Assembly: GCA_048270185.1 (NCBI GenBank)
Contig: JBLWTJ010000002.1
Coordinates: 1-64,000 of the forward strand
Direction: 5' to 3'
Length of the DNA: 64,000 nucleotides
Origin: Bacteriovoracaceae bacterium
GTDB lineage: Bacteria; Bdellovibrionota; Bacteriovoracia; Bacteriovoracales; Bacteriovoracaceae
Below, one piece after another: positions 1 through 19,362 of this stretch (positions are counted from its first letter, which is position 1; each line of letters starts with the position of its first letter). Position numbers and translations under genes: made by a program. The notes below the pieces were generated by a model. It saw nothing but the letters and a program-made list of their open reading frames with translations. It did no database searches and had not been told where the DNA came from.

Positions 1-4
1 ATAA

Positions 5-1162: not shown

Positions 1163-1219
1163 CACCAAAAACTCAAGAAAAATTGAATTTACTAAAAACT
1201 CAGATCCCCGAAAATATAA

Positions 1220-1648
1220 ATGAGATATTTTTGGAGAATTCCTGTGATTACAACAAATGAAAAGCTTATATATAAGAGAAAGCTGCCTATAACATTCTGG
1301 ATTGGAGAAGTTTTAAGGGGCTGTACTATTTTTGGTCTACCTTTTGCTATTGCTAATGTTAGTTCATCACTTACATCCTCAGTACAAGTAACAGATAAGA
1401 GAATATTTGGAATTTCTGGAAAATTGGGTTCTCAAAATTTTGATATTAGTTATGACAAAATTTATCAAATAGAAGTTAAAGAAAATACATATCAAAAAAT
1501 CTGGAATTATGGGGAACTCATCATTATAAGCACTAGTGGTGAAGAATTTTCAATTATCTGTGAGTCTCCAACAATTGTAAAAAAAGAGATATTCATTTTA
1601 CAAGATCAATACAAATATGAAAATGAAAGTGAGCTAGCGATAGTATGA
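1220..1648 (+). CDS. Bacterial PH (bPH_2/YdbS-like) domain membrane protein
   Basis: N-terminal hydrophobic stretch; VTDKRI...I.YDKI...KIWNYGELII pattern; ATGA-type overlap with next gene. Confidence 0.6.
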   Translation: MRYFWRIPVITTNEKLIYKRKLPITFWIGEVLRGCTIFGLPFAIANVSSSLTSSVQVTDKRIFGISGKLGSQNFDISYDKIYQIEVKENTYQKIWNYGELIIISTSGEEFSIICESPTIVKKEIFILQDQYKYENESELAIV

Positions 1649-2337
1649 GAAAGAATATCTTACTAATAGATAATGATCATGATTATATTGAGTTCTTTGA
1701 GAATTTATTAGGGAATGAATATCAAATATGTATCGCAAGAGACTTGAATGAAACAATCGAACAAATTAAAGATGAACCATTTTATTTTGAATTAGTAATT
1801 TGTGAAACACACCTTGAGAATATGAGTGGTTTTGAAATTTTCAATAAATTAAGAAATAATATTGACTTTCGACATATTCCTTTCATCTTTAAAACATCTT
1901 CAAAATGTGAAGAAATATTCTATGAAGCAATGGTTCTAAATGGTGTCGAAATTATCCACACCAATATGAAATATTTTGAAGTCATTGCACGTATAAAGCT
2001 TGCAATAAGAAGTGCACCGGTTATCAACTTAAAAGTAGATGAATCGACATTCGTTATGATTGATACTATTTCTAGAAAAGTAATTTTCCCACAAGTGAAC
2101 ATCCCTATTTTTTTAACAGAGAGTGAACTAAAAACTTTAAAAGTATTTGATTATAAAAATGATTATATTAAGAAAGAGGAAATAATCGAATACGTTTACG
2201 GGAAAGGTTACCACATCACTGACAATAACTTTAATACTGTCCTTTCAAATATAAGAAAGAAGATTGAACCATTAAATATTAAGATAGCAGCAAAAAGAAA
2301 TATTGGTTTAAGACTTGAAGCTCTACAGGTATCATAA
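1645..2337 (+). CDS. Atypical OmpR/PhoB-type response regulator (phospho-acceptor Asp replaced by Glu)
   Basis: REC (LLIDND; ELVICETHLENMSG) plus wHTH (LTESELKTL; TVLSNIRKKI; RNIG); paralogue of 14321 and 17450. Confidence 0.85.
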   Translation: MRKNILLIDNDHDYIEFFENLLGNEYQICIARDLNETIEQIKDEPFYFELVICETHLENMSGFEIFNKLRNNIDFRHIPFIFKTSSKCEEIFYEAMVLNGVEIIHTNMKYFEVIARIKLAIRSAPVINLKVDESTFVMIDTISRKVIFPQVNIPIFLTESELKTLKVFDYKNDYIKKEEIIEYVYGKGYHITDNNFNTVLSNIRKKIEPLNIKIAAKRNIGLRLEALQVS

Positions 2338-2338
2338 A

Positions 2339-2360
2339 AAAGGGCCAGTAATGGCCCTTT
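2339..2360. terminator. Bidirectional intrinsic terminator
   Basis: AAAGGGCCA-gtaa-TGGCCCTTT between convergent genes. Confidence 0.75.
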
Positions 2361-2365
2361 AATAT

Positions 2366-3289
2366 TTACTGCTTTTTCTTTTCTTTTCTCGATACTAATT
2401 TGTATTTGAAGAAGAGTGAGTCTTGCTTACCGGCAACATCATAAGTTAAAACCATTCCACTTGATTTACCAATACAGTGCTGGTCATCAATTACTTCAAC
2501 CATACCACTGATTCCTTCTGCAAATCCTTTTACATTTCCACATAGTGGGTACTTTGTTAAAACCTTAGTCGACCAATTCATTCGATATAAATCTTTTGCA
2601 TAAACAAAAACTTCGACTTCATCACCTGGCATTACTTTAGTACTAGGAGCAGGTCTATCCCAGTTTGATCTAGAATAAGTGGCCGGAGCAACTTCTAAGT
2701 TACGTCCTGAACCGTCAACAATATTCGTCTCTGCCCAATTAATTGAAACTACATTTGAAGTATTATTCTTAAGCTTTAACGACTGTCCTGGAAGTGTCAT
2801 ATTTGGAAAGTACGTAAGCTCAACTCCGCCTTTTTTCACAGTGAAATGCTTCCCTTTTAATGGGCTATATTTTCTTTCAACAGGATCGCTCCATAGCTCC
2901 TTATATTTGTAGATATCAGCGTCAATTTCAGCGTAAATAAGAGCATTATCCTTTTCTCTAAAGCACGTTAAAAACTTAGGTTCTTCATCGATATTCCCGT
3001 TTGACTTCTTTAATGCAATCATCATTTTTGACGGTGCATTCATATACCATACGTCACAATTAATTTTACCTTGGTCCTTTCCTCCATCTCTTGAAGATGA
3101 CGAATAAGGCTGGCCAGCAAATTTAATAATTTCATCTCTTTTAATTGTTCCAAGCTTATCAGAAATAAGCCCTTCTAGCTTAGCCTTCTCTAACTTTTTC
3201 CCTTCAGCAAAAGAACCTTGTAATTGTGCACATGATGTTACAAGGGCCAGTGCACTTACAGCACAAGTAAGTTTGAATGTTGATGTCAT
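2366..3289 (-). CDS. Orphan lipoprotein (possible SmpA/OmlA-like N-domain plus beta-sandwich C-domain)
   Basis: Lipobox LVTSC; start moved to ATG 3289, which has an AGGAG SD; KRDEIIKFAGQP resembles SmpA/BamE. Confidence 0.7.
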   Translation of the reverse strand: MTSTFKLTCAVSALALVTSCAQLQGSFAEGKKLEKAKLEGLISDKLGTIKRDEIIKFAGQPYSSSSRDGGKDQGKINCDVWYMNAPSKMMIALKKSNGNIDEEPKFLTCFREKDNALIYAEIDADIYKYKELWSDPVERKYSPLKGKHFTVKKGGVELTYFPNMTLPGQSLKLKNNTSNVVSINWAETNIVDGSGRNLEVAPATYSRSNWDRPAPSTKVMPGDEVEVFVYAKDLYRMNWSTKVLTKYPLCGNVKGFAEGISGMVEVIDDQHCIGKSSGMVLTYDVAGKQDSLFFKYKLVSRKEKKKQ

Positions 3290-3354
3290 ACCTATCTCCT
3301 TAAATGACAATATTTGTATAAGATGATTATAGGTCTATTCACATTTCACAAAAG

Positions 3355-3412
3355 GTAAGTTGTCTTACCTTATGAGTAAGAATTCTTACCTCTTGAAGTA
3401 AGAGATCTTACC
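3355..3412. promoter_or_regulatory. Triple palindromic operator array GTAAG-N4-CTTACC
   Basis: Exact copies start at 3355, 3376 and 3398, between divergent lipoprotein genes. Confidence 0.85.
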
Positions 3413-3439
3413 TTAAGACAAAGTGAAGTGATCCGATAA
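3413..3439 (+). promoter_or_regulatory. Putative sigma28 (FliA) promoter
   Basis: TTAA-N15-TCCGATAA upstream of 3473. Confidence 0.6.
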
Positions 3440-3472
3440 TTTAAATACTAACTTCAACAAGGGGACGTTTTT

Positions 3473-4135
3473 ATGAAGAAGTTTTTATTTTTAATTCCAG
3501 CGATTCTAATCGCACAATCTTGCTCTAGCAGTCTTTCAGAGGGTGAAGCTCTTATGCTTGAAAAAAAATTCAAACCTCAGGTGAGCTTTTATCAACTGAA
3601 GGATAACAAAGTAACAACTGACTCATTAAAAGTAGGCAGCTTTAAAATCATTGAAAAAATTTCTCTTTCAGATATTGAAGAAGAAAAAATTGAAAAGGAT
3701 GTAAAAGCAGCTCGAGCATTTGGTGCAAAAGGTTATGATCTTGAAATTAAGAAATACATTATTGGGGCACAATACCTTGCACCTGAAGACGGGATGATTG
3801 TTGCAGGAACGAGTATCTTTAAAAATAAAGCAACATTTGAAAAAGAAAAAGAGAATGCAATTAAAAATGAAACACATGAAAGAAAATGTGCTGCCCATAG
3901 TACGAGTTGGGGAAAAAGATATTGTGTTAAGTATAACTTAGTAAAAGTAGAAAACTATGATCAAAAGCTTAAAGAGCTTCAAGATCAATTTGCTAATTTT
4001 AAAGTCATGAATAAGGGCGATGTTCTTCTAACAAAGAATTATGAAGTTGGTTACAAAACAGAATCAATGGAAGGCAAAAGCCAAACATATGTACATTATA
4101 AGAAAATACCTGGAAGATCCACAGCTTCTAAGTAA
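3473..4135 (+). CDS. Orphan lipoprotein, paralogue of 13042..13668
   Basis: Lipobox IAQSC; shared motifs DG.(I/V)VA..SIF.N, a Cys pair followed by CVK, and KGD(V/I).L...YE. Confidence 0.8.
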   Translation: MKKFLFLIPAILIAQSCSSSLSEGEALMLEKKFKPQVSFYQLKDNKVTTDSLKVGSFKIIEKISLSDIEEEKIEKDVKAARAFGAKGYDLEIKKYIIGAQYLAPEDGMIVAGTSIFKNKATFEKEKENAIKNETHERKCAAHSTSWGKRYCVKYNLVKVENYDQKLKELQDQFANFKVMNKGDVLLTKNYEVGYKTESMEGKSQTYVHYKKIPGRSTASK

Positions 4136-4142
4136 TTCCTCT

Positions 4143-4171
4143 AAGAGTGTCTTAACATTTAAGACACTCTT
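4143..4171 (+). terminator. Intrinsic terminator
   Basis: AAGAGTGTCTTAA-cat-TTAAGACACTCTT followed by a T-rich tract. Confidence 0.7.
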
Positions 4172-4284
4172 CTTATTTTCAAGATTTCATTAAAACATTA
4201 ATAAACTGACTATCGTCATAGCTAAAGTATATTACTTGTGCAAGGATGTGCGTTTGTGTAAATAATTTTCATAGGAGAGAAGAC

Positions 4285-5490
4285 TTGGAGATTAAAGAAT
4301 TAAAAGAAGAAAATAGCTTTGGTTTCGACGAATTATTTTTTTCACGCACAAATAAGAAAGGAATCATTGAATCAGGAAATTCTGTTTTTCAACGAGTAAG
4401 CCAGTATGAATGGGACGAAATGCTTGGTAAGCCTCATAAAGTGGTAAGACACCCAGAAATGCCACGAGGTGTATTCTCACTTCTATGGGATACTATTGGA
4501 AAAGGTGAAATGATTGGTGCCTATGTTAACAACAAGGCCAAAGATGGAAGCAATTATTGGGTCTACGCTCTTGTTTCCCCTATCGCAGATGGTTATTTAT
4601 CTGTTCGTTTAAAGCCAAGTAGCGATTATTTTGAAATCGTAAAGCAAAAGTACAATGATCTGCTACAGCTTGAGAAGAAAGAAAGGTTAACACCAGAGCA
4701 ATCTCAAGAAAAACTATTAGAAGTTATTAATGAACTAGGCTTTCAAACCTATAAACACTTCATGATTGAGTCACTGATGAAAGAACTAGAATGCCGTCAA
4801 CAAGAACTAGGGGGAGAGCCAATCGAAGAACTCGAATTACTTCGTGGTGCTTTAAAATCGGGGACTCAATTACAAGGTAATTCAGAGTTAATTTTTGATG
4901 CCTATAAGAAGACATCCCTCGTGCCAATTAATCTTGAAGTTCAATCAGCACGCATCGGTCAGACGGCCGCTTCACTTGCAACAATTTCAACTCAATACGA
5001 TAAGCTTGCCAAAGAAATTCAAGAGCAGATTAAACTCTTTGCTGAATCAGGGAAGATGGTTCAAGAAAAAGTAAAAGACTGTCAGTTCTATGTTTGTAAT
5101 TCAATTCTTCAAAGAGAGATTTTTCAATTCTTCGAACAAGAAGTAAAAGAAACTCCTGTTCACAAAGAGGGGGAAATGACGATTCTAAATCAACTTAGAA
5201 ATCAACAAATTCACAGTGCAAGATCAAGTTTAGATGAGATTCAAAACGAATTTAGGCAGTTTAAAAAAGTATGTGACGATGTAAAGAAACTTTCAATTGG
5301 GCTTGAAATGGTAAGTATAAGTGGCAAGATTGAAGCGGCTAAGTTAACAAATGAATCGGGTGAATTAAGAGGACTTCTCGATGAACTAACAACATTTAAG
5401 GACTCATTAAAAAGCACTATCCATATAATTAATGAGTGTGGAAGTGACCTTCTTCACCAGGTTAATCATATGAGAAAAGCTCTACTTTAA
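4285..5490 (+). CDS. Soluble Aer-type PAS protein with degenerate MCP-like signalling helices
   Basis: LFFSRTN.KG; RHPEMP; NKAKDGSNYWV (Aer PAS motifs); probable TTG start at 4285 after AGGAGAG. Confidence 0.75.
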   Translation: MEIKELKEENSFGFDELFFSRTNKKGIIESGNSVFQRVSQYEWDEMLGKPHKVVRHPEMPRGVFSLLWDTIGKGEMIGAYVNNKAKDGSNYWVYALVSPIADGYLSVRLKPSSDYFEIVKQKYNDLLQLEKKERLTPEQSQEKLLEVINELGFQTYKHFMIESLMKELECRQQELGGEPIEELELLRGALKSGTQLQGNSELIFDAYKKTSLVPINLEVQSARIGQTAASLATISTQYDKLAKEIQEQIKLFAESGKMVQEKVKDCQFYVCNSILQREIFQFFEQEVKETPVHKEGEMTILNQLRNQQIHSARSSLDEIQNEFRQFKKVCDDVKKLSIGLEMVSISGKIEAAKLTNESGELRGLLDELTTFKDSLKSTIHIINECGSDLLHQVNHMRKALL

Positions 5491-5495
5491 AACTC

Positions 5496-6206
5496 TTAAA
5501 TATCCTTAAAGCCTAGTCTTCCGACAAACGGAAGCTTTATGGCCGGAGGATAAACATCAACACCAAAGCTTAAACCAAGGGCGTTGACTTCAACGCCTTC
5601 TTTTAGGCCAACAGTGACTCCTGCTACACCAAAGAGAGAAACCTGCCCTCCAGTATTTGAAGCTGTATTAGAAATGAGGCTTGTCCCAAGATAATCTTTT
5701 CCAATGGCATGAGGGGGCATCTCGACATCAATTTCTTCAATCTCTCTTGTCATATGAGCAACAAAAGTATTTGAATTCGGCCCAGGCCAGACACGGTAGA
5801 TATCTTGGTATGGATAATTTGAAATTTTCTCTTTTAATTGCTTAATAATACGATCGGCCTTATCCCCTCTGGCTTCAAACATCAGAGTCGGCATACTATC
5901 AAACCATTTACGATCAGGAAGGTCTTGTTCTACTCTTACCGCTGTTCCTTCTCGTCTTATATTCCAAGATGTCACTTGAGCGACCGTGTATTCTTTGTCC
6001 TCTTTCTGCTTCCAAGAGATCCATGGGTGAACAGCTAGGTTTCCACGCCATGAGTAGGCACGAGCATAATAAATTAGAACAATACTTTCTTTTAACTCAC
6101 TTGCAAGAGGTGCAAGACCTGCACTCTCCCTCGACATCTCACGCCAACTCTTAGAAGAGCATGAAGTTAATAGCAGTGATATTAGAATGATAATTAATTT
6201 ATTCAT
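5496..6206 (-). CDS. DUF3750-like lipoprotein
   Basis: Lipobox LLTSC; WRG.LAVHPWI, Y.VWPGPNSNTFVA and IGKDY motifs. Confidence 0.75.
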   Translation of the reverse strand: MNKLIIILISLLLTSCSSKSWREMSRESAGLAPLASELKESIVLIYYARAYSWRGNLAVHPWISWKQKEDKEYTVAQVTSWNIRREGTAVRVEQDLPDRKWFDSMPTLMFEARGDKADRIIKQLKEKISNYPYQDIYRVWPGPNSNTFVAHMTREIEEIDVEMPPHAIGKDYLGTSLISNTASNTGGQVSLFGVAGVTVGLKEGVEVNALGLSFGVDVYPPAIKLPFVGRLGFKDI

Positions 6207-6504
6207 TGATACTCGTCTTTATTGTTTCAAGAACACCTGGATAGAGTTTGCGAATATTTGGATTGAGGAAGAGGTATTTCTTAACACCCTCAACTCGCTC
6301 ACAAATAATATGGGCCTCAAGAAGAATCTTGATATGGTGAGAGAAAGTGGCCTTGTTCACACAATATTCAAAAGATCCGCAAGTCATTTCGAAGGCACCG
6401 TGCTCTTCTTCATAGGCCAAAAGCTGGCGAATGACTCCCATTCGGATAGGATCTCCTAATGATTTAAATATCTTATCTAGTGGTATGTCTTTACATTTAT
6501 TCAT
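6199..6504 (-). CDS. ArsR/SmtB family transcriptional regulator
   Basis: FKSLGDPIRM..I; KATFSHHIKILLEA. Confidence 0.85.
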   Translation of the reverse strand: MNKCKDIPLDKIFKSLGDPIRMGVIRQLLAYEEEHGAFEMTCGSFEYCVNKATFSHHIKILLEAHIICERVEGVKKYLFLNPNIRKLYPGVLETIKTSINE

Positions 6505-6513
6505 GTTTTTCCA

Positions 6514-6585
6514 TTGTTAGATAAAATTCTAACAAAAGACTTGATTTTTATCAAGAGCAGGATTATTGTTTGATAAATATCAAAC
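6514..6585. promoter_or_regulatory. Three related palindromic operators (probably ArsR sites)
   Basis: TTGTTAGA-N6-TCTAACAA (6514-6535), CTTGAT-N4-ATCAAG (6540-6555), GTTTGATA-N2-TATCAAAC (6568-6585). Confidence 0.65.
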
Positions 6586-6598
6586 TAAAGGAGTCACT

Positions 6599-7660
6599 AT
6601 GACAACTCTACTTTCACCGATAAAACTTGGAAATATAGAATTAAAAAATCGCGTTATCATGGCGCCACTAACACGCGCACGTGCAGGAGTTGAACGCATT
6701 CCAAACGATCTAATGCTTGAATACTATACACAAAGAGCAGGTGCTGGAATGATCTTAACAGAAGCTACGGCCATTACTGAAGACGCTGTTGGTTATGCCA
6801 ATACTCCTGGAATCTGGTCACAAGAGCAAGTTGCTGGTTGGAAGAAAATCACACAGGCCGTTCAAGCAAAAGGCTCAAAGATCTTTATGCAACTATGGCA
6901 CGTTGGACGAATTTCTCATTCATCTTTTCTAAAGGGAGAAAAACCTGTTGCCCCAAGTGCCATCAGGCCAGAAGGTCACGTCTCTCTTGTAAGACCAATT
7001 ACAAATTATGAAGAGCCACGTGCACTTGAAACAAATGAAGTGAAGGCCATTGTCCAAAATTATAAACAAGCGGCCATTAACGCAAAGGAAGCGGGCTTTG
7101 ATGGAGTTGAAATCCATGCGGCCAATGGTTATTTGATTGACCAATTCCTACAAGACTCAACAAATAAGAGAGATGATCAATATGGAGGGAATATTGAAAA
7201 CAGAGTGCGATTCTTGCTTGAAATTACAGACGAACTCATTGATGTATGGGGCGCAGATCGCGTTGGTGTTCATCTTGCTCCTCGTTGTGATAGCCATGAT
7301 ATGGGTGACTCAAATCCCCTGGATCTTTTTAGCTATGTGGTAGAAGAACTTAACAAGAGAAAAATTGCTTTTATCTTTACTCGTGAACATCTTGCAGAAG
7401 ATAGTATCTCGCCAAAATTAAAACAAAAATTTGATGGCGTCTTTATTGCCAATGAAAAGTACACAGGACAGACAGCACAAAGAGCATTAGACGATAAGAT
7501 AGCCGATGCTATTTCTTTTGGTGTGCCATTTATTGCCAATCCTGACTTAGTTGATCGCTTGGCCATTAATGCTCCATTAAACGAACCTGTCTTTGAAACT
7601 TTCTACGGGCCAGATCACGTTGGCTATACTGACTATCCAACACTAGAGGAAGTAAGGTAA
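6599..7660 (+). CDS. nemA: Old yellow enzyme family alkene reductase (NemA/XenB-like)
   Basis: [40 protein letters not shown] before ATG 6599. Confidence 0.9.
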
Positions 7661-8646
7661 TGCCAAAACTTTCTCTACTCGACTTAGTTTTTGTAAATGA
7701 AGGTGCTGACTTAAAATCAGCGTACGATGACTCGATAAAAACAGCACAAGCGGTTGAAGAGTTTGGCTTTAACCGAATTTGGGTAGCTGAACATCATAAT
7801 ATGCCGGCCATTGCCAGTGCTGCAACTTCAGTCGTTATTGGCTTACTTGCTAGTCAAACAAAGAAAATAAGAATTGGTGCCGGAGGTATTATGCTTCCCA
7901 ACCACTCTCCTCTTGTAATCGCAGAACAATTTGGAACATTGGAAGCACTTTATCCAGGAAGAATTGATCTTGGACTTGGGCGGGCCCCGGGAACTGACCA
8001 ACAAACTCTTCGTGCACTTCGTACCGATGCTAAGAAATCAGATAATTTTCCAAAGGATGTGGTCGAACTTCAACGCTTCCTATCTAAAGATAGCGAAGGT
8101 GATGCAATTATGGCCACTCCAGGAATGGGCTCGGAAATACCTCTATGGATTTTAGGTTCATCGACTTTTGGGGCCCAGTTGGCAGCGCACTTAGGGCTAC
8201 CTTACGCTTTTGCTTCGCACTTTGCCCCTGATGCTATCGCCGATGCTCTCGCTCATTATCACAATGACTTCACTCCATCAAAACAACAAGACAAGCCCTA
8301 TGTTATGTTAGGAGTAAATATCATTATAGCTGACAGCGATGAAGAAGCTCAGTTCCTTTCAACAAGTCAGAAGCAATCTTTTGCTAACTTGCGCCGTGGC
8401 CTGAAAAAGAAATTTCAAGCACCAATTGAAGATATGGATTCATACTGGGATGTTCATGAAAAGATGATGGCCCAACATATGCTTCACTTTTCTTTTATTG
8501 GCTCAAAGGAGGTAGTAAAGAAAGAACTTGATACATTCATTGAGCGATACAGGCCAGATGAACTAATGGTTGTGACTTCAATCTACGATGTGGAGAAGAG
8601 AATTAAATCGCTTAAGCTTTTAAGTGAACTTTACAGCGATCTATAA
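7660..8646 (+). CDS. LLM-class luciferase-like flavin monooxygenase (YhbW-like)
   Basis: [30 protein letters not shown]. Confidence 0.9.
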
Positions 8647-8664
8647 AGCTCCTATCATCTTTTT

Positions 8665-9111
8665 ATGAAGAAAAAGAATATTGCCCTTGTGGCCCACGAT
8701 CACCGAAAACAAGATTTAACCAACTGGTGCGTTGAGCATAGAAATACACTCTCAAAACATAACCTCTTTGCAACAGGTACAACTGGGCGATTATTAGAAG
8801 ATAAGCTAGAACTTAAAATTACCCGCTTTCTAAGTGGTCCAATTGGTGGAGACTTCCAAATCGGCAATGCCATTGTTGAAGGAAAAATTGATATGTTGAT
8901 CTTCTTCTGGGATCCACTTGAGTCAATGGCCCATGATCCAGATATAAAGGCACTGCTAAGAATTGCGACTCTTTATAATATCCCGATGGCCTGTAATCAA
9001 ACAAGTGCTGACTTTTTTATAAGCTCAAGCCTGATGTTCGAAGACTACCAAAAGAAGCTCACTGTTCTCAATAATTACCATGATAATCGGGCCAAATTCA
9101 ATACTGACTGA
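8665..9111 (+). CDS. mgsA: Methylglyoxal synthase
   Basis: IALVAHD, ATGTTG, SGP.GGD.QIG, FFWDPL, HDPD.KALLR. Confidence 0.95.
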   Translation: MKKKNIALVAHDHRKQDLTNWCVEHRNTLSKHNLFATGTTGRLLEDKLELKITRFLSGPIGGDFQIGNAIVEGKIDMLIFFWDPLESMAHDPDIKALLRIATLYNIPMACNQTSADFFISSSLMFEDYQKKLTVLNNYHDNRAKFNTD

Positions 9112-9226
9112 TTCTTAATCAAAACTAAGTTAAAGTTGTTTAAGTTACTGAATTCACAAAGAGAATATTTGCATAGTAAGTGTTTTTTTTCTTTGAGAAT
9201 TTCAATAATCGAAATACAATTTTCTA

Positions 9227-10585: not shown

Positions 10586-11457
10586 TGAAAAAAATAATCG
10601 TCTTACTATTTATCATTGAGATTCTCTTATTATTTAAGAGCGAGACAAAAGAGCATCAAATTGAAGTCACTGACCTCAAGCTTAAGCCTGAGACTATCCT
10701 CTTCTTAGGTAACTCGACACTCAATGCGGCCATTGATCGATCAATTATTAACGACGATACAAGAATAATTTGGCAACCTGATGCAACAACGAACTGGGTC
10801 TATTATGAATTCATGAACCTCTTAAAGACTAATAATATAAGAAAAATTGTCTATACGTTCAGAGAAAATGAAATCACCCAGGATGGCTGTGCTGCTTTCT
10901 GGCAACAGTATGAAAGGATAAAGAAACTCGTTTCTTTAAATGATCCCATTTTTCAAAAATATGATATTAAGAGATGCCTAAGCTTTCCAGAAAGAATAAT
11001 CTTTAAGCACTCCGCTCTCTATCGAAACCGACTCGGTTTAAGAAATAATTTTGAAGATTATTTTAAAGCAGCTTTCACTAGGACCAACAAGAATGAGAAT
11101 ATAAGATTCATTTTGAATAATGACTGTGGAAGCTTTAAAGGAATTAAACCAGAGTATGAACTTAAGTTTGAAGATACCTTTCTTGCTCTTATGCTTGATG
11201 AAGCGAAAAAGAGAAATATCAAATTTATCCTTGCAAAGGTTCCGACTATCGACAACCTAACAAATGAAGACCCAGAGGATATAAAATACTATGAAGACTT
11301 AAAGAAGTTCACCATAAGCCGTGGTGGCCACTTCTTTGACATCCCGTCAATCAAGGTCCTCTCAAGTAATATGTTCGAGGACCCCGTTCATTTCAATAGT
11401 ATTGGTGCATCTATCTATAGTAGGGAGCTAAGAAACTTCTTAGAGCTTACAAAATAA
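10585..11457 (+). CDS. SGNH-like periplasmic partner of the MBOAT (AlgJ/DltD/PatB-like)
   Basis: FLGNS block I and FEDPVHFN (DxxH) motif; translationally coupled to the MBOAT. Confidence 0.7.
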   Translation: MKKIIVLLFIIEILLLFKSETKEHQIEVTDLKLKPETILFLGNSTLNAAIDRSIINDDTRIIWQPDATTNWVYYEFMNLLKTNNIRKIVYTFRENEITQDGCAAFWQQYERIKKLVSLNDPIFQKYDIKRCLSFPERIIFKHSALYRNRLGLRNNFEDYFKAAFTRTNKNENIRFILNNDCGSFKGIKPEYELKFEDTFLALMLDEAKKRNIKFILAKVPTIDNLTNEDPEDIKYYEDLKKFTISRGGHFFDIPSIKVLSSNMFEDPVHFNSIGASIYSRELRNFLELTK

Positions 11458-11550
11458 GTTAATTTATCAGTTAAACTAACTTAAATTTGTCTATTTTATC
11501 TAGCTCTAGCTATAATAAAGAGTATATTACTTTAATCATGGATGTATTAA

Positions 11551-13011
11551 ATGCTACTCTTTCTAACTTGCCTCGCGCTGCTTGCTTTGGCCTATAAGTT
11601 CTACAGCCCCTTTGTCGAGAAACAAGCAGGTATTGACCACAACAAGTTAACACCTGTTAAACAATTTGAAGATGGGGTCGACTACGTCGAAGTAAATCCA
11701 ATCAAAGCCTTTCTCATCCAATTTCTAAATATTGCTGGTGTTGGTCCAATTTTTGGTCCAATTCTTGGCGCCATCTATGGACCAGTTGCCCTTGTATGGA
11801 TTGTTCTTGGAAATATTCTAGGAGGTTCAGTTCATGACTTCTACTCAGGTGTCTTGAGTATAAAAGAAGACGGAAAGAGTTTACCCGAAATTGCAGGACA
11901 TTATTTAAATAAATACTTTAAAGGAATCATGCTCTTCTTTACGGCCATGCTTCTCTTCTTTGTCGGTGTCGTTTTCATTATGAGTCCAGCAGGCCTTATT
12001 AGTAATCTTGATGCCTTTAAAGGTACAATATTTGCAGGAAATACTTTCTGGGTTTTAGTTATCCTTGCCTACTATCTTCTTGCGACACTTCTTCCAATCG
12101 ATAAAATCATCACAAAGTTCTATCCTGCATTTGGTCTACTCATGGTTGTTATGACTGTCTCTATTGCAATCGCACTATTAGTAAATGCTCCACATTTACC
12201 AGAATTAGGAAGTGTGTTGACAATTTTTGAACATAACCACATGGCCGAAAAATTACTACATCGCGCACCAGGAGCCCCTCCAGTATGGCCTCTTCTCTTT
12301 GTGACAATTACATGTGGAGCAATTAGTGGGTTTCACTCGACTCAAGCTCCAATCATTGCTCGTTGTCTTTCAAATGAGAAGTATGTTCGCCCTGTATACT
12401 ACGGAGCAATGTTAGCAGAAGGTGTCGTTGCATGTGTTTGGGCCTTAGCTGGTATTGCCGCATTCCCAGATGGATATGTTGAATTAAAGGCAGTTATTGC
12501 TCAAGGTGGACCAGGACTTGTGGTTAAACAAGTTGCCTCAACATATCTAGGAACTGTTGGCGGAATCATGGCGATCCTTGCTGTGGCAATCTTCCCAATC
12601 ACTTCAGGTGATACGGCATTTCGTTCACTGCGACTTACAATTATCGATGCTTTCAATATCAAACAGAGTATCAAAAATCGTCTAATGGTTTCGATTCCTA
12701 TTCTTACGATCGCCTACTTTATGACAAAAATCGATTTCTCACTAATCTGGCGCTATTTTGCTTTTTCAAATATGCTTCTTTCAACAAGCGTCTTGTGGCT
12801 TGCTGTGAAGTATCTCTTTAATCGCAAAGCATTTCACTGGATTGTTAGCCTTCCGGCCATTGTCGGAACAGCTGTGACTGTGTCTTATATTCTAACAGCA
12901 CCAATTGGTCTCAATATGGATAAGGCCCAAGCTCAACCTCTAGGAGTTGGGGTTGGTGTTCTTTGCTTAATTTCATTGATTGTCTTTCATAAGAAAAATT
13001 ATTCAAAATAA
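11551..13011 (+). CDS. cstA: Carbon starvation CstA family transporter
   Basis: DGVDYV, IAG.GPIFGP, ITCGAISGFHSTQ, ITSGDTAFR. Confidence 0.9.
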   Translation: MLLFLTCLALLALAYKFYSPFVEKQAGIDHNKLTPVKQFEDGVDYVEVNPIKAFLIQFLNIAGVGPIFGPILGAIYGPVALVWIVLGNILGGSVHDFYSGVLSIKEDGKSLPEIAGHYLNKYFKGIMLFFTAMLLFFVGVVFIMSPAGLISNLDAFKGTIFAGNTFWVLVILAYYLLATLLPIDKIITKFYPAFGLLMVVMTVSIAIALLVNAPHLPELGSVLTIFEHNHMAEKLLHRAPGAPPVWPLLFVTITCGAISGFHSTQAPIIARCLSNEKYVRPVYYGAMLAEGVVACVWALAGIAAFPDGYVELKAVIAQGGPGLVVKQVASTYLGTVGGIMAILAVAIFPITSGDTAFRSLRLTIIDAFNIKQSIKNRLMVSIPILTIAYFMTKIDFSLIWRYFAFSNMLLSTSVLWLAVKYLFNRKAFHWIVSLPAIVGTAVTVSYILTAPIGLNMDKAQAQPLGVGVGVLCLISLIVFHKKNYSK

Positions 13012-13016
13012 AAAAT

Positions 13017-13034
13017 GGGGCCAGATATGGCCCC
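13017..13034. terminator. Bidirectional intrinsic terminator
   Basis: GGGGCCA-gata-TGGCCCC flanked by A and T tracts between convergent genes. Confidence 0.75.
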
Positions 13035-13041
13035 TAACTTT

Positions 13042-13668
13042 TTAAATTTCTTTATATCCGACATTAATTTCATTCTTACCTTGCACACCAACCACTTCAG
13101 TCCAAATTTCGTAAGGTCGACTTAAAATGATATCACCTTTCTTAAACTCTTTTGAGACTGCATAGGCAGATCTTAGCTCTTTTTCTTTTGCCTCATGGTC
13201 ATCTACCTTTACACGCTTTTCTTTTACACAACGCTTATTCCAACCAATTCCATGATGCTTTACACACTTTACATAAGTTGTCTTATATTCAATGAGATTC
13301 TTTAGATGTTCATTATAAACTTCCATATTTTCAAAAATTGAACCATTTGCAACCACAAGACCGTCTTTATCGGCAGTGTACTTCAAGTGTATATTGTATC
13401 TCGCATAATCATAATCGGCATCAGGTGCCCCCATTTGTGAAAGCATGAGCTTTGATTGAACAAATTTCTCGTCATCAGCAGGTGTACGATCAAGTTTCTT
13501 CTCAATCTCAAAGTGAGAGTAACTATAATCAATATACTTATCACTTGAGTAATACCTAATAGTTGTTTTCTTTTTCATTTTCTGATCAACTTTCATAGTT
13601 ACTGCTTCATCAAGCTTAGTCGAGCAAGAAACAAAAAATAATAGCGATAAAATACTTAAAATCTTCAT
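13042..13668 (-). CDS. Orphan lipoprotein, paralogue of 3473..4135
   Basis: Lipobox FVSC; colinear similarity over the C-terminal half. Confidence 0.8.
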   Translation of the reverse strand: MKILSILSLLFFVSCSTKLDEAVTMKVDQKMKKKTTIRYYSSDKYIDYSYSHFEIEKKLDRTPADDEKFVQSKLMLSQMGAPDADYDYARYNIHLKYTADKDGLVVANGSIFENMEVYNEHLKNLIEYKTTYVKCVKHHGIGWNKRCVKEKRVKVDDHEAKEKELRSAYAVSKEFKKGDIILSRPYEIWTEVVGVQGKNEINVGYKEI

Positions 13669-13676
13669 ATAAACTC

Positions 13677-14153
13677 CTATTGTCCGTTAAATTTCTTCAT
13701 TAAAGCTTCGGCACTCATTTCTTTGAAGTTCTTTTTATTAAAGTATTCGTAACTACAGCGATTGAAATCCATTGCCACAAATTTACCGGCAACAACTTTT
13801 CTAAACTTAAAGTCAGAATCATTTCCGAAAGGTATAAAGATACATTGCTTTCTCTTATCTAGGTTAAATGAAGCACGCATTTGATTCGGCTTACGGTTAT
13901 AAACTAGAACAAACACACCCTTATTAAATTGATTTCCGTAATAAGATCTCTCTTTTGTGAACCCTTCAAAAATAGTCTCAGGGCCAAATTTTTGTTTTAC
14001 TTCAACTGGAGTCAGACCAACGATATCATCTGGGCCAATAGCACCAAGTGGCTTCCCGTAGTCATTAGTTTCAATACTCGAGGTCGTCTTTGTAAGTCCC
14101 CCACATGAAGTTAGTAGTATTCCAAATAATGTGATAGCAAATAATTTTCTCAT
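13677..14153 (-). CDS. Orphan lipoprotein (SmpA/OmlA-like motif)
   Basis: Lipobox LLTSC; VGLTPVEVKQKFGP; SD AGGAGG. Confidence 0.7.
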   Translation of the reverse strand: MRKLFAITLFGILLTSCGGLTKTTSSIETNDYGKPLGAIGPDDIVGLTPVEVKQKFGPETIFEGFTKERSYYGNQFNKGVFVLVYNRKPNQMRASFNLDKRKQCIFIPFGNDSDFKFRKVVAGKFVAMDFNRCSYEYFNKKNFKEMSAEALMKKFNGQ

Positions 14154-14196
14154 CAATCCTCCTTAAATAATTTGCGCTGCACAACAAGCTTCGTCT

Positions 14197-14251
14197 GTAA
14201 CCTCATTTTCCGAAAGGTAAAAACCTTTACCTCTCATGTAATTTCTATCAC
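14197..14251. promoter_or_regulatory. Second, degenerate triple GTAA-N6-TTAC operator array
   Basis: GTAAC-ctca-TTTTC (14197), GTAAA-aacc-TTTAC (14217), GTAAT-ttct-ATCAC (14238). Confidence 0.6.
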
Positions 14252-14268
14252 TTAGATGCCAAACTCAA

Positions 14269-14297
14269 TTGCATTTACTATAGCCTGAGTATAAAAT
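14269..14297 (+). promoter_or_regulatory. Putative sigma70 promoter of the RR/HK operon
   Basis: TTGCAT-N17-TAAAAT. Confidence 0.55.
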
Positions 14298-14320
14298 TTT
14301 TATTGAAGGAATAATAAATT

Positions 14321-15010
14321 ATGAGGAAGAATATTTTTATCATTGATGATGACAAGGATTTCATTGAGCTTTATACACAAATCTTATCGTTTGAATTTAA
14401 CGTTAGATCCGTCACAAACCTAAGAGATGCAATTGCTTATCTTGAAGAAAATCCATTTGAACCAGACTTAATCCTATGCGATATCTTTATGCCAGAGACA
14501 AACGGTTTCGAAGTTTACGACTTCTTCAAATCGCAAGAGAAGTTTGAACATCTTGATATCATTTTTAAAACTTCATCGTTGAATAAGAGCGTCTATGAAG
14601 AGTCAATTATCAATAAAGGGACTGAGTTAATTAGTACCTATATGTCTATTGAAGAAATTAGCGCCCGAGTTCGAAGAGCATTATTAAATGTGAATGTTAT
14701 CAAAGTAAAAAATAGAGAAAATCTTGTTTTCGCTATTTGCCGACAAACAAGAAAGTCACTCTATCCAAGCTTTAATATTCCAATCGAATTTAGCGAAACA
14801 GAAGTTAAGATATTAAGGATTGTATCCTCATCAAATTCTCCGATTCCAAAAGAAAAAATTCTAAAAAGTTGCTTTCCAAGCTCGACAGTGATTACGGATA
14901 ACAATCTCAACACAACTTTTTCAAATCTAAGAAAGAAGTTAGTACACCTTAATGCCAAGCTAGTCACAAGACGTAATATCGGAACTGAAATTCACTTTAT
15001 CCAAGAGTAA
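14321..15010 (+). CDS. Atypical OmpR/PhoB-type response regulator
   Basis: IIDDD; DLILCDIFMP.TNG; wHTH TTFSNLRKKL; conserved beta5 Lys absent. Confidence 0.88.
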   Translation: MRKNIFIIDDDKDFIELYTQILSFEFNVRSVTNLRDAIAYLEENPFEPDLILCDIFMPETNGFEVYDFFKSQEKFEHLDIIFKTSSLNKSVYEESIINKGTELISTYMSIEEISARVRRALLNVNVIKVKNRENLVFAICRQTRKSLYPSFNIPIEFSETEVKILRIVSSSNSPIPKEKILKSCFPSSTVITDNNLNTTFSNLRKKLVHLNAKLVTRRNIGTEIHFIQE

Positions 15011-15013
15011 TCA

Positions 15014-16252
15014 ATGACAATTATTAATAAGCTTTTAAATATATTTTCAAAATTATTAGATTTCTTTGAGCCAAAACCAATAAAGATCAATCGTGAAAGA
15101 GTGGGAGTTGTTTTAATTACAACCCTATGTTGGTATTCAGAACTTGTTGCTGCAATAGCTATTGATGTCCCTGTAACAACAATTCTTTGCTTCTCTGCAG
15201 GTATCTTTAATTTCCTCATTCTATTTACTAGAAAGTTTAATCTCATCTCAAGTACGAATATGGCAAGAGTTTACATTGTTGTTTCAACTTCAGAGCTACT
15301 TTTCACACAATATATGGGGGGATTAAGTTCCGGTACACCGACTCTTATCTGGATGGGAACAATCCCTGTTGTTTCGATTTTTATCCTAGATTTCAAAGAA
15401 GGAACAATATGGTCTGCTATTTCAATGTTGACGTCATTTTTTCTTATGTATTTTAACCATCGTTATAATTTTGCTCCTAATGAATATAGCGCAGAAGCTC
15501 AGTACCTATCTGCCATGTCAAATCAGATTTATGCACCATGCTTCTTCTACGGAACCTATGCCTTAATGCACTTCCAAAAAGAAAAGTATTTTAAAAGTCT
15601 AACAGACAAGAATGAAGAACTACTTCTATTAAAAGAAGAAAAGGATAAACTTCTAACAATCCTATTTCACGATCTAGGCCGCAACTCATCAATGCTTTCA
15701 AATTACCTCGAGTTAGATGATCGTCAAGAACTTACAGATAAGGCAAAAGAAAAAGTTTACTCATTATCAAATGAGATCAAAAGTATTTTAAAGAATGCCA
15801 AAAGTCTGGACTCTAAATTAATTGAATCAGCAAAGCAAAGTATTTCAACTATTGTGCTTTTCAAAGAACTAAAGAGCTTATTTGAGCTAACATTAAAGAA
15901 AAAAGAAATTACTTTCAAATTCGTAGGTAATGGAAATTTACTTTTAACAGCAAACAAGTCTCATCTTATAAACCATGTTCTCGGGAATCTCCTCTCTAAT
16001 GCGATAAAATTCTCTCACCGCAACGATGAAATAATTTTCAAGGCAACGGATAACGACAATAAGATTAAAATTGAAATTATCGACAACGGGACGGGTTATC
16101 AGGAAGGTATCATTAAGAAAGGAACAGAGAGCGAAGATGGTTCAGGAAATGGACTTAAAATTGTTAAGCAATTTTCTCGTTTAAATAATTTAAACTTTAT
16201 GATTGAGCCAAATCAAAATGAAGGAACAATATGTTCAGTAACTTCAAGCTAG
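15014..16252 (+). CDS. Multi-TM sensor histidine kinase (short ATP lid)
   Basis: LFHDLGRNS H-box, NLLSNAIKFS N-box, DNGTG G1, GSGNGL G2. Confidence 0.88.
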   Translation: MTIINKLLNIFSKLLDFFEPKPIKINRERVGVVLITTLCWYSELVAAIAIDVPVTTILCFSAGIFNFLILFTRKFNLISSTNMARVYIVVSTSELLFTQYMGGLSSGTPTLIWMGTIPVVSIFILDFKEGTIWSAISMLTSFFLMYFNHRYNFAPNEYSAEAQYLSAMSNQIYAPCFFYGTYALMHFQKEKYFKSLTDKNEELLLLKEEKDKLLTILFHDLGRNSSMLSNYLELDDRQELTDKAKEKVYSLSNEIKSILKNAKSLDSKLIESAKQSISTIVLFKELKSLFELTLKKKEITFKFVGNGNLLLTANKSHLINHVLGNLLSNAIKFSHRNDEIIFKATDNDNKIKIEIIDNGTGYQEGIIKKGTESEDGSGNGLKIVKQFSRLNNLNFMIEPNQNEGTICSVTSS

Positions 16253-17448
16253 TAAGTCTTCATCTCAAACTAATCGATTACTTCATTGGTGATAGTAGTG
16301 ATGAATTCATTAAGATAAAAATAGGATTTTCATTAACCTGTCTCTATATGTGGTTAATTCAAGTGGTCTATTGTGGCATAGTAGGACTCCCAAACGTCTC
16401 AATTATTTGTTCGATAGCCTCTACCCTCTATCTCATTACCTTATACATACTTAAGAAAAGTCTTATTAGTACAACTATATTCTCAAGACTAATGATCCTA
16501 ACTTCAATCATTGCTTTACACCTATGCTATCTAAATGCCGGAGCCTACCTAAATCCTACCATTATTTGGTTAATGACCATTCCTGTTTTTGCCATTACAT
16601 TATCGGGATTAAAAGAAGGAGCCGTCTGGAGTATTTTTTCCTCTGTTCTATCTATCGTTCTTATGGAAGTCTATCACCAAAGTAATTGGACTTTTAATGA
16701 GTGGAGTACAAAACATATTTACGATGTTGGACAAAGTAATCTATTTAATGGACCACTGTTATTCTTCTTAATGTTTGGTTTTTACTATTACAGTCGTAAT
16801 AAACTACAAAGAGACCTAGAAGAAGTAACTCATGAAAAAAATCGGTTATTAAATATTCTATTTCATGATATTGGAAGAAATACTAATTTATTGGCCAATT
16901 ACATGGAACTTTCAGCACAAGAAAAACCGTTGACTGGTCATCTTAAAAGATCCTATGAATTAGCAGATGAGATCAGACAAATTATTATTAATTCTCAACA
17001 ATTAAATGAATATCAATATCAAACGGACGCCAAGTCAATTGATATCCAAACGCTATACATCGACACGAGAGAAAAGTATGAATATGACTTAAAAAGAAAA
17101 GGTATTCACCTAAAACCACAGATAGCGAATGGCCTAAAAATAAAAGCAAACCCTTCACAATTTCAAAGTCATATAATTGATAATTTAATTTCAAATGCTA
17201 TTAAATTTTCTAATAGTAACTCAGAAATAATATTTAAAGCTGATAGATACAAAAACAAGACTTCAATTCATATAATCGACAACGGTATCGGGCATAACGA
17301 TGGCGAACTCAGAGAAGGTACAGCTGGAGAGAAAGGTTCAGGCAAAGGCCTTTCCATTGTAAACCAATTTGCAAAATTAAATAACTTAGAGTTTTCAATT
17401 TACCAACAAAGTAGTGGCGGCACAATTTCGTGCATCAGAGAGATGTAA
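16231..17448 (+). CDS. Multi-TM sensor histidine kinase (short ATP lid)
   Basis: LFHDIGRNT, NLISNAIKFS, DNGIG, GTAGEKGSGKGL. Confidence 0.88.
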   Translation: MFSNFKLVSLHLKLIDYFIGDSSDEFIKIKIGFSLTCLYMWLIQVVYCGIVGLPNVSIICSIASTLYLITLYILKKSLISTTIFSRLMILTSIIALHLCYLNAGAYLNPTIIWLMTIPVFAITLSGLKEGAVWSIFSSVLSIVLMEVYHQSNWTFNEWSTKHIYDVGQSNLFNGPLLFFLMFGFYYYSRNKLQRDLEEVTHEKNRLLNILFHDIGRNTNLLANYMELSAQEKPLTGHLKRSYELADEIRQIIINSQQLNEYQYQTDAKSIDIQTLYIDTREKYEYDLKRKGIHLKPQIANGLKIKANPSQFQSHIIDNLISNAIKFSNSNSEIIFKADRYKNKTSIHIIDNGIGHNDGELREGTAGEKGSGKGLSIVNQFAKLNNLEFSIYQQSSGGTISCIREM

Positions 17449-17449
17449 A

Positions 17450-18133
17450 ATGAGAGAGAAAATTTTATTAGTCGATGACGATCGCGACTTCATTAACTTT
17501 TATACAAAACTACTAGAAGAACATTATGACATTCAGTCATCAATGAATCTCAAAGATACACTTTCACTTCTCAACGAATCCCCCTATCAATACGATCTTA
17601 TTATTAGTGATATTTTCATGCCAGAGATCAATGGTTTTGAGTTACACGATTATTTAAAAGAGCAAGATCAAATCAAGTATATTCCAATTATCTTTAAAAC
17701 CTCATCTCTAAACTCTGATGTTTATACTGAGTCAATGATTAATAAACAAACAGAGTTATTAAGTACCTATATGACTAATCAAGAATTTCTTGCACGAATA
17801 AGGAGATCTCTTAACGCTAGTCCAATTTTAAAGATAAGAGTAACAGATGAGATAATGATAATAATTGACACAGATTCGAGAGAAATTATTCATCCTCAAT
17901 CCAATACATCTATTTCATTTACAACAAATGAACTAAAAACTCTTCAAGCCTTTGATACAAATACTACATATATCACAAAAGAAAGTATCATCGAATTTGT
18001 ATATGGAGAGAACTATCATATGACTGATAATAACTTTAACACGGTTCTATCAAACATCAGAAAGAAGATTGAACCTTTTGGTATTGGTATTACAAATAAG
18101 AGAAATATTGGTCTTCGTATTGAAGGAAAATAA
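17450..18133 (+). CDS. Atypical OmpR/PhoB-type response regulator
   Basis: LLVDDD; DLIISDIFMPEING; TVLSNIRKKI; start moved to ATG 17450. Confidence 0.88.
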   Translation: MREKILLVDDDRDFINFYTKLLEEHYDIQSSMNLKDTLSLLNESPYQYDLIISDIFMPEINGFELHDYLKEQDQIKYIPIIFKTSSLNSDVYTESMINKQTELLSTYMTNQEFLARIRRSLNASPILKIRVTDEIMIIIDTDSREIIHPQSNTSISFTTNELKTLQAFDTNTTYITKESIIEFVYGENYHMTDNNFNTVLSNIRKKIEPFGIGITNKRNIGLRIEGK

Positions 18134-19362
18134 TGAAAAACATATATATAAAATCCTTCAATCAACTACAAAACATCCATATAAACTTTATTAGATATAT
18201 CAATAGCAATGATGATAGTGAAACTAATATTAAAATTGGAGTTATGGTATTTATCATTTATATGATGGTGCTACAATTTATTTACTGTGCAAGCATTGGA
18301 CTCTTTGTTGAAGTCATTGTGACAGGAATTACACTTTTGGCTCACGCCATAACAATTTATCTCTATCGAAATCAAAAGATTAAGCTCGACATGGTATTTC
18401 ATGTTACTTGTTTTTGTACTTCTGGTGTAATTCTCGTTTGTAATATGGATAATAATTTTCAAGTTAATCCGACTTATATCTTTCTAATTTCAACACCATT
18501 TAGCGCCATACCAATGCTTGGAATAAAAAGGGGTATAGCTTGGTCGATCTATTCAATCTTAGTTAGTTTGGTACTAATGATTACTGGAATGTACTATGAT
18601 TATGGCTTTCATTTAAGAACCATCGAACAGAGTACAAATCTTTGGTTATCAAATGCTGTTACTGCCCCATTTATTGTTATCTGTATTTCCAGTTTTACAA
18701 TATGGCAAAAAGATATTTATACAAAGAAGCTCCTAGAACAAAAAGAAGAGCTCAAAGAAATGGCCAAGGAAAAGAAAAGAATCCTCAATATGATGTTTCA
18801 TGACCTTGGACGAAACTCATCACTCTTGTCAGGATATCTTGAAATGTCTAGTCAAGATAACTTCACAAAAGATGATCTTAATAAGCTCTCAAAGCATACA
18901 AATGAAATTAAAACAATTCTAATCAATGCAAAGTCACTTGATGAATATACTCCAGGAACGGAACAAGCAAAGATTAATATTTATGATTTATACCAGGAAC
19001 TAAAGTCCTTATATGAAGAAAGATTAAACAATAAGAAGCTTCAATTTATTTTTAGAGGACCTAAACGCCAAACTATAATTCATAATATAAATCATATAAA
19101 AACTCATATATTAAGTAACCTACTCTCCAATGCTATTAAATTCTCTACCCCTGAGAATGCAATTATATTCGAGGTTTCAAATAATACTATTTCAATTATT
19201 AACTATGGAATTCCCTTTAAAGAAGTACAGCGACCTGGGACACTAAATGAAGAAGGTAGCGGCCTTGGCCTAAAGATTGTTCGTGATTTCTGTAAGAAAA
19301 ATGATATTTCGTTTAGAATTACAAGTAATGCAGATGAGACACAGGCGATGATTACTTTCTAG
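18133..19362 (+). CDS. Multi-TM sensor histidine kinase, degenerate G1 box
   Basis: MFHDLGRNS, NLLSNAIKFS, INYGIP instead of DNGxG, GSGLGL. Confidence 0.82.
   Translation: MKNIYIKSFNQLQNIHINFIRYINSNDDSETNIKIGVMVFIIYMMVLQFIYCASIGLFVEVIVTGITLLAHAITIYLYRNQKIKLDMVFHVTCFCTSGVILVCNMDNNFQVNPTYIFLISTPFSAIPMLGIKRGIAWSIYSILVSLVLMITGMYYDYGFHLRTIEQSTNLWLSNAVTAPFIVICISSFTIWQKDIYTKKLLEQKEELKEMAKEKKRILNMMFHDLGRNSSLLSGYLEMSSQDNFTKDDLNKLSKHTNEIKTILINAKSLDEYTPGTEQAKINIYDLYQELKSLYEERLNNKKLQFIFRGPKRQTIIHNINHIKTHILSNLLSNAIKFSTPENAIIFEVSNNTISIINYGIPFKEVQRPGTLNEEGSGLGLKIVRDFCKKNDISFRITSNADETQAMITF

Follow-up and report, generated by a model that had tools for sequence, protein, structure and literature searches.

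A small two-component module with a predicted palindromic operator beside lipoprotein genes in a Bacteriovoracaceae bacterium

The first 64 kb of contig C2 in the 3.35 Mb genome of a Bacteriovoracaceae bacterium (hereafter the window) contain two loci, A and B, in which genes for OmpR-type response regulators (RR) and, at locus B, histidine kinases (HK) lie close to lipoprotein genes (LP) and clusters of short palindromes, which raises the question of whether these elements belong together and how such a system might work. Judging from sequence comparisons, we find it on balance probable that they form a small and patchily distributed two-component module, whose regulators bind the palindrome as dimers and activate the lipoprotein promoters as well as their own operon, and the regulatory link between regulators, site and lipoproteins as such appears well supported computationally. 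The open reading frames (ORFs) listed in an earlier note on this DNA all exist at the coordinates it gave, and improved starts could be assigned to LP2366 (ATG 3289), LP13677 (ATG 14153) and the third regulator, RR_B2 (ATG 17450). The features of the two loci are:

1220..1648, + strand: bPH_2 gene (bacterial PH-domain; Pfam PF03703, E 1.4e-7)
1645..2337, + strand: RR_A, OmpR-type regulator with Glu at the phospho-Asp position (Pfam, alignment, tree)
2339..2360, strand unassigned: terminator-like hairpin between the convergent RR_A and LP2366
2366..3289, - strand: LP2366, lipoprotein, 307 aa from ATG 3289
3326..3331, - strand: -10 hexamer TATAAT facing LP2366, 22 nt from the end of site A1
3352..3414: operator array A (predicted), three palindromes, 20-mers at 3352, 3373 and 3395, period 21-22 bp
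3435..3440, + strand: -10 hexamer GATAAT facing LP3473, 22 nt from the end of site A3
3473..4135, + strand: LP3473, lipoprotein of an unnamed family
4143..4171, + strand: terminator-like hairpin 3' of LP3473
13017..13034, strand unassigned: terminator-like hairpin between cstA and LP13042
13042..13668, - strand: LP13042, lipoprotein, paralogue of LP3473 (31%)
13677..14153, - strand: LP13677, lipoprotein of a small unnamed family
14194..14254: operator array B (predicted), strong site 14214-14233 and two flanking 7/8 sites, period 20-21 bp
14276..14281, + strand: -10 hexamer TACTAT facing the RR-HK operon, 23 nt from the end of site B3
14321..15010, + strand: RR_B1, OmpR-type regulator, phospho-Asp present, beta5 Lys lost, Lys at T-1
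15014..16252, + strand: HK1, multi-pass membrane histidine kinase
16231..17448, + strand: HK2, multi-pass membrane histidine kinase
17450..18133, + strand: RR_B2, OmpR-type regulator, phospho-Asp present, beta5 Lys lost, Lys at T-1
18133..19362, + strand: HK3, multi-pass membrane histidine kinase, G1-box Asp replaced by Asn

The palindromic site and its neighbours

The phased arrays described in the earlier note are borne out, since a scan for triples of GTAA-N6-TTAC (at most one mismatch, 19-23 bp period) finds only two in the 3.35 Mb, starting at 3355 and 14197. Array A consists of three good palindromes with GTAA at 3355, 3376 and 3398, and array B of a single good site (14217) and two 7/8 sites (14197 and 14238). 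The pattern originally suggested for the site, GTAAR-N4-YTTAC, occurs at background level (30 matches genome-wide vs 14-29 at other spacer lengths) and was dropped as too loose an operator motif. Upstream of the regulator gene in three other genomes (G092, G093 and G175) there are five palindromes of the form AAGGTAA-N6-TTAC(C/T)TT, and a matrix trained solely on these five sites ranks the window sites 1 (tied with a match in coding DNA), 3 and 7 genome-wide, where they are the sole intergenic matches in the top 12. Indeed only three intergenic sites in the host genome score 17 or more and all of them lie within arrays A and B; the other strong matches in this genome (G000) fall in coding DNA, and thus no genome-wide regulon is seen. 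At loci elsewhere in the other genomes, 13 matches of at least 14 were found at 12 of 18 loci, and 12 of these 13 are coding.

The site adjoins the regulator/kinase family in all five other carrier genomes, namely G092, G093, G175, G061 and G514, the last of which is from another family. Two of these, G061 and G514, were found after the matrix had been built and both bear the site, which amounts to a blind confirmation. On contig C94 of G061 a site scoring 21.2 is found at the contig end, flanked by a YccF gene with an LP3473 homologue on one side and by a divergently oriented homologue of LP13677 (E 7e-10) on the other, on contig C25 of the same genome a cut-off regulator and a full kinase are accompanied by a second site (19.6) before another lipobox gene, and in G514 the regulator-kinase pair has a site scoring 22.8 located 59 bp upstream of the regulator start. 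None of 25 control loci of more distant kinases reaches a score of 17, the best being 11.0. Matches to the strict pattern are at the locus in G092 (1/1), G061 (1/1) and G093 (1/2), and the absence of such matches at the G175 locus (0/2) is due to its sites ending in TTACT. Furthermore, the regulator is the sole DNA-binding family seen at every carrier locus. The regulator-nearest site has the spacer TTGATT in G092 (L015 9587), G175 (L013 3186) and G514 (L273 9168) alike, and this common spacer suggests common descent of that particular site.

As to the promoters, a -10 hexamer is found 22-23 nt from the outer site at three of the four outward promoters in the window, at 23 nt on both sides (2/2) of the site on G061 C94, and once from each site in G092, the background rate for such a hexamer score at 22 or 23 nt being 6%. 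Class II activators bind sites that abut the -35 position, and with a spacing of 22-23 nt the site would abut the -35 position in the same manner, so that the geometry at the three outward promoters is activator-like by analogy. We propose that regulator dimers bind AAGGTAA-N6-TTACCTT and, after phosphorylation by the kinases, switch on both the promoters of the adjoining lipoprotein genes and the operon that encodes the regulators themselves, with the dimers on the outer sites contacting RNA polymerase at the -35 position.

Receivers, kinases and known relatives

The three regulators are of the OmpR type (Response_reg plus Trans_reg_C) with pairwise identities of 35-44%. PF00072 is above cut-off in RR_A, RR_B1 and RR_B2, and PF00486 in RR_A and RR_B2, with RR_B1 at 23.6 bits against a cut-off of 26.2, and no named two-component system of NCBIfam was matched (best listed regulator 69.5 bits vs 270). 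The recognition-helix motif said to be common to the three is confirmed, TDNNFNTVLSNIRKKI being identical in 1645 and 17450, with TDNNLNTTFSNLRKKL in 14321. In the receivers, the register of which was set by alignment to canonical paralogues and to 5DCM (n=16 family members), the position of the beta5 Lys is taken by Thr in 15 and by Ser in one, the residue that follows (K+1) is never Pro, the aromatic switch position K-3 is Leu, Ile or Val throughout, and the conserved Thr84 is present in all 16, as is a Lys at the residue preceding it (T-1). The phospho-Asp, Asp54, is present in 15 of the 16, and acidic pair, phospho-Asp and Thr/Ser all occur together in RR_B1, RR_B2 and 13 relatives. RR_A, in which D10N and D54E are found and the Pro at D+4 is lost, is the sole member with Glu54. 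The site scan detected no predicted operator upstream of RR_A and none upstream of the bPH_2 gene at 1220, the stop of which overlaps the RR_A start, so that the two genes likely share one transcript. We propose that RR_A would act on the same sites as the other regulators, without phosphorylation.

As a pseudoreceiver is defined, in PMC12548384, as a receiver missing any of DD, D, T/S or K, all 16 proteins without the beta5 Lys are pseudoreceivers by that definition, which counts against a role of phosphorylation. It is indeed conceivable, albeit unlikely, that the regulators bind the palindrome as phosphorylation-independent pseudoreceivers and that the kinases act by contact or not at all, given that the beta5 Lys, the Pro after it and the aromatic (Tyr/Phe) switch residue are absent from 16 of 16, where the closest solved relative, 5DCM, has a canonical SKPF, that PMC4395418 describes this Lys as an invariant feature of typical receivers, and that in one copy Glu has already replaced the Asp. 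Such a loss of function is however in poor agreement with the retention of Asp54 in 15 of 16 proteins only ~40% identical to each other, together with the acidic pair, the Thr and a new invariant Lys, and with the kinase gene, its His intact, that comes immediately after the regulator in each of the five other carrier genomes.

In the geometry of CheY the T-1 side chain is on the same sheet face as the two aspartates and the lysine, and a Lys at T-1 could therefore substitute for the lost beta5 Lys, in which case Asp54 phosphorylation would still work in the module that we favour. Among 179 distinct receivers from the host genome and the fetched loci, K or R is found at T-1 in 8 of 11 without the beta5 Lys vs 2 of 168 with it, but these eight are kin (six of the family and two sister proteins), so that the covariation may be a single event, and the three remaining Lys-less receivers are without K/R at T-1, both of which speak against a relocated Lys. 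More tentatively still, and as a possibility only, the catalytic Lys may have moved from beta5 to T-1 with phosphate still accepted, within a module that moves among predatory bacteria with an operator of its own and in which stacked intramembrane sensors control swappable inhibitor-like envelope lipoproteins, a constitutive regulator of the Glu type providing the tuning. Receivers that retain the Asp and their kinase but have lost Lys-Pro and gained a Lys at T-1 in any case pose the question of whether the role of the invariant Lys can be served from elsewhere, a question that bears on how pseudoreceivers are defined, and should it be so, proteins filed as dead pseudoreceivers would be live. 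A lost beta5 Lys and K/R at T-1 are also seen in sister OmpR-type regulators of G139 (L009), G025 (L010), G015 (L270) and G142 (L272); the G139 gene has a site scoring 14.9 upstream and the G142 gene a match of 19.4 within its end.

The three kinases have HATPase_c (PF02518) above cut-off and are 31-38% identical. They share the H-box FHD[LI]GRN, of which FHD.GRN is invariant in 7 kinases, and a conserved N box, N[LI][LIV]SNAIKFS, whereas no Pfam HisKA match was obtained and the best NCBIfam score was 58.4 vs a curated cut-off of 600. The suggestion that several kinases feed a small RR family is thus in agreement with the shared H-box, and with the same His helix in all three, each of them could presumably feed both RR_B1 and RR_B2. 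In a hydropathy scan 3-5 segments of each kinase exceed a strict threshold and a large outside domain is absent, with matches below cut-off to MASE6 in HK1 (17.2 bits vs gathering 27.4) and to MASE11 in HK2 (14.4 vs 27.3). What the kinases sense would lie in or at the membrane and would most likely be damage to the envelope. A second kinase on G061 C25 (L210 4434-5612) has a cytoplasmic half nearly identical to that of the main G061 kinase and a different membrane part, which suggests a sensor swap; a weak site (12.8) is found between it and a divergent secreted protein.

The best solved-structure match to the regulator is the PhoB-family regulator 5DCL/5DCM (full length, E 2.5e-19), which we take to be streptococcal NsrR, a BceR/GraR-like protein. 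Regulators of the BceR/GraR type work with intramembrane kinases and palindromic sites. The window kinases, however, have more membrane segments than the partners of such regulators, and no BceAB-type ABC transporter is adjacent to the window operon or to the RR-HK pair in G092, G093, G061 or G514; G175 has an unrelated HlyB/HlyD-like exporter ~5 kb away (by eye). CmrRST of Clostridioides difficile is a similar module in that at least two OmpR-type regulators are combined with a kinase, one of them (CmrT) having Glu at the phospho-Asp, and in that CmrR, which is of the OmpR type, binds an inverted repeat and autoactivates its operon (PMC12548384), but it differs in that CmrR and CmrT keep the beta5 Lys, in its single kinase, and in its site, ACAAT-N8-ATTGT. 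RR_A resembles the aspartate-less receivers of PMC4395418, with Glu at the Asp position and the second acidic residue altered, yet those receivers mostly keep Lys-Pro (70% basic) and the family reverses this, Lys-Pro being lost and Asp kept in 15 of 16. In its mode of action the module may resemble autoregulated systems of the OmpR type that have an inverted repeat as operator, such as CmrRST and BceR-like ones. With an operator that can be predicted, the family is a small and so far undescribed variant of the OmpR type and belongs to no named family, and a literature search, with most subscription papers outside its reach, found no description of the family, its site or the T-1 lysine. Its interest lies in a regulator family with predicted operator and promoter geometry in predatory bacteria, the gene regulation of which is little studied.

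Lipoproteins and varying cargo

All four lipoproteins pass a lipobox heuristic that is passed by 152 of 3135 ORFs (4.8%). The paralogy of LP3473 and LP13042 holds (31% over 209 aa, E 2e-29). SmpA/OmlA motifs had been read in both 2366 and 13677, but neither matches Pfam BamE/SmpA and weak fold support was obtained for 13677 alone; nor was homology detected between LP2366 and LP13677 (BLAST E 6.6, profile probability 4.9%). The proteins can also no longer be called orphans, as relatives are present elsewhere for these families. The LP3473 family has at least 21 representatives (HMMER) with the lipobox Cys and a conserved Cys pair, and a word-indexed protein search returned only the two window copies; its model is poor (pLDDT 54.8 from 3 sequences) and gave no match at Z >=5. 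The LP13677 family has 10 clusters and no sequence match in the PDB. The LP13677 model (pLDDT 75.5) best matches BtiO (Z 4.2), OsmE (4.0), YjgB (3.8), the BAM-complex chain 8adg_E (3.7) and BLIP (3.2), so that the likeness to SmpA/OmlA/BamE/BLIP-like structures stays at Z <5 throughout with rmsd 3-5 A. PF04355 was not matched in Pfam by LP13677 and weakly by the G175 homologue (E 0.11), and the Atlas row scores 0.88 with BamE in 11% of members. There is in other words weak but coherent support for a putative SmpA/OmlA/BLIP-like protein-binding fold. LP2366 belongs to no Pfam or NCBIfam family, its N-terminal 100 aa and its full-length homologue in G213 are without a Pfam PF04355 match, and its Atlas matches are <0.9.

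Neighbouring bPH and YccF genes are associated with envelope stress. Together with the modelled LP13677 fold and the intramembrane kinases they may point to a role of the lipoproteins in envelope protection, which is the least certain step of the mechanism; the lipoproteins would then be interchangeable cargo, probably protein-binding envelope protectors, and three unnamed lipoprotein families would be tied to a candidate inducing signal. In G145 the gene after the LP3473 homologue (L165 2075-2551) is weakly bPH-like (E 0.07), an arrangement reminiscent of the bPH gene at 1220 in the window.

The association of the RR/HK family with lipoproteins stands as far as one shared site beside lipoprotein genes is concerned, the site following the regulator into 5/5 other carriers, whereas the fixed lipoprotein pair of the earlier note does not, since the LP3473/LP13677 pair recurs with the site only in G061 and other families are found in G092, G175 and G514. 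In G175 and G092 the lipoprotein opposite the site is another one, homologous between the two (E 1e-9). Full-length LP3473 relatives occur in 4 of 237 other genomes, two of them with the kinase (two further weak partial matches were set aside), and LP13677 relatives in 3 of 237, again two with the kinase, the hypergeometric p of ~1e-3 for each being overstated because kin are not independent. Regulator, kinase and site recur throughout, whereas the cargo changes from one genome to the next.

It would seem quite improbable, although compatible with such variation, that the sites are only autoregulatory or repressive and the lipoproteins mere passengers of variable islands. Several lipoprotein homologues are indeed without a site, lipoproteins are common as stated above, and the second site in G092 is downstream of a candidate -10, in a repressing position. 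Array A, however, has a lipoprotein gene and a -10 at 22 nt on either side and no regulator promoter in its vicinity, and G061 C94 repeats this arrangement with homologues of LP3473 and LP13677. Several further observations weigh against an activating module as proposed. LP2366 relatives occur in 2 of 237 other genomes, neither of which has the core kinase, and no upstream site is found for the LP3473 homologues in G145, G034 and G093 or for those of LP13677 in G175 and G075. The gene directly facing the site in G093 and G514 is small and DNA-binding-like, and the lipoprotein lies beyond it. Other genomes do not share the phasing of three sites, the LP13677 promoter side shows only AATTAT, and no convincing -10 was found at 22-23 nt from the sites in G093, G175 (best GATCAT) and G061 C25. 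In addition, the Asp of the G1 box is replaced by Asn in HK3 and four relatives.

That an unlinked CRP/FNR-family protein binds the site is very unlikely. The architecture fits, a similar arrangement of 5-6-5 palindromes ~22 nt from a -10 being known from NtcA-type class II promoters, and HTH_Crp_2 proteins are encoded in all five genomes tested. None is however encoded at these loci, the intergenic sites of at least 17 are confined to the two arrays, and the site tracks the regulator across families. Furthermore, the six CRP-type helices that were read are of E-T-x-x-R types, which prefer other half-sites.

Distribution, origin and setting

With regard to the module favoured here, the core kinase family (E <1e-160) is found in 5 of the 238 genomes of the order, the host included, the next matches falling to 1e-83 (the second G061 kinase) and then 1e-65. 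The regulator is found in 4 of 238 at E <1e-70, to which the G061 fragment is added, in one of 300 genomes that were sampled outside the family, and in at least 16 clusters of a large protein set; these counts are lower bounds, as the search scored the best 8000 candidates and missed the G061 fragment at first threshold. No close member of either family is present in 12 congeners. Pattern-based locus scans, dominated by generic proteins, gave no family member among the matches listed from metagenomes and genome contigs and none in viral contigs. The system is thus patchy and not lineage-wide, with one occurrence in another family.

Most carriers have one regulator and one kinase. In a FastTree phylogeny RR_A is a long-branched, fast-evolving sister of RR_B2 (support 0.985), RR_B1 groups with G175, HK3 with G092 kinases (0.99) and HK2 with G093 kinases (0.58). 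As each kinase of the window groups with kinases of other genomes, the five-gene operon looks stacked from old paralogues and not duplicated in place, and the two loci were probably pieced together from such paralogues and not copied as a unit. The earlier description of a duplicated module repeating the same parts is hence abandoned, since the paralogues are old, locus A is without a kinase and the gene order differs. A recent duplication of locus B into locus A with loss of the kinases is largely refuted and hardly credible, because the regulator, LP3473-family gene and triple array common to both loci and the sister position of RR_A and RR_B2 are outweighed by paralogue identities of only 31-44%, unrelated second lipoproteins, a different gene order and congener backbone genes between the loci; a partial duplication of ancient date may nevertheless have occurred.

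The regulator and kinase genes are of low GC (0th-9th percentile among the genes of the genome). The order mgsA, cstA, rlmF-like methyltransferase and mazG-like gene is kept in four congeners (labels partly by eye), and as these carry other genes between cstA and the methyltransferase, locus B occupies a variable slot. In the run X3, near-identical contigs end at 13014 and start at 17449, and most of 1-6100 is also uncovered; the LP13042-HK2 block may accordingly be strain-variable, the joint between the flanking X3 contigs not being seen. Integrase-like, conjugation-like and IS-like genes were noted by eye near family members or LP3473 homologues in G092 (L015 746-6096), G034 (L004) and G061 (L210 5906-6679), in line with mobility. 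Beside the module in G514 (L273 1-2734) there are genes for a ThiF-like protein, two SagB-like dehydrogenases and a short secreted peptide, which by eye look like a RiPP cluster. At the contig start, the low-GC ORF 5-1162 encodes 385 aa with a sigma-70 region-4-like N-terminus (weak RpoS matches, E 0.003); it is single copy in the genome, and the island may extend past the contig end. Directly after locus A, 4246-5490 encodes a PAS-domain protein of Aer-like look with no membrane segment or recognised signalling domain. Finally, 47448-55295 encodes what by eye is a lipobox-like surface protein of 2615 aa, in which GG/G-rich motifs recur and the C-terminal parts are lectin-like.

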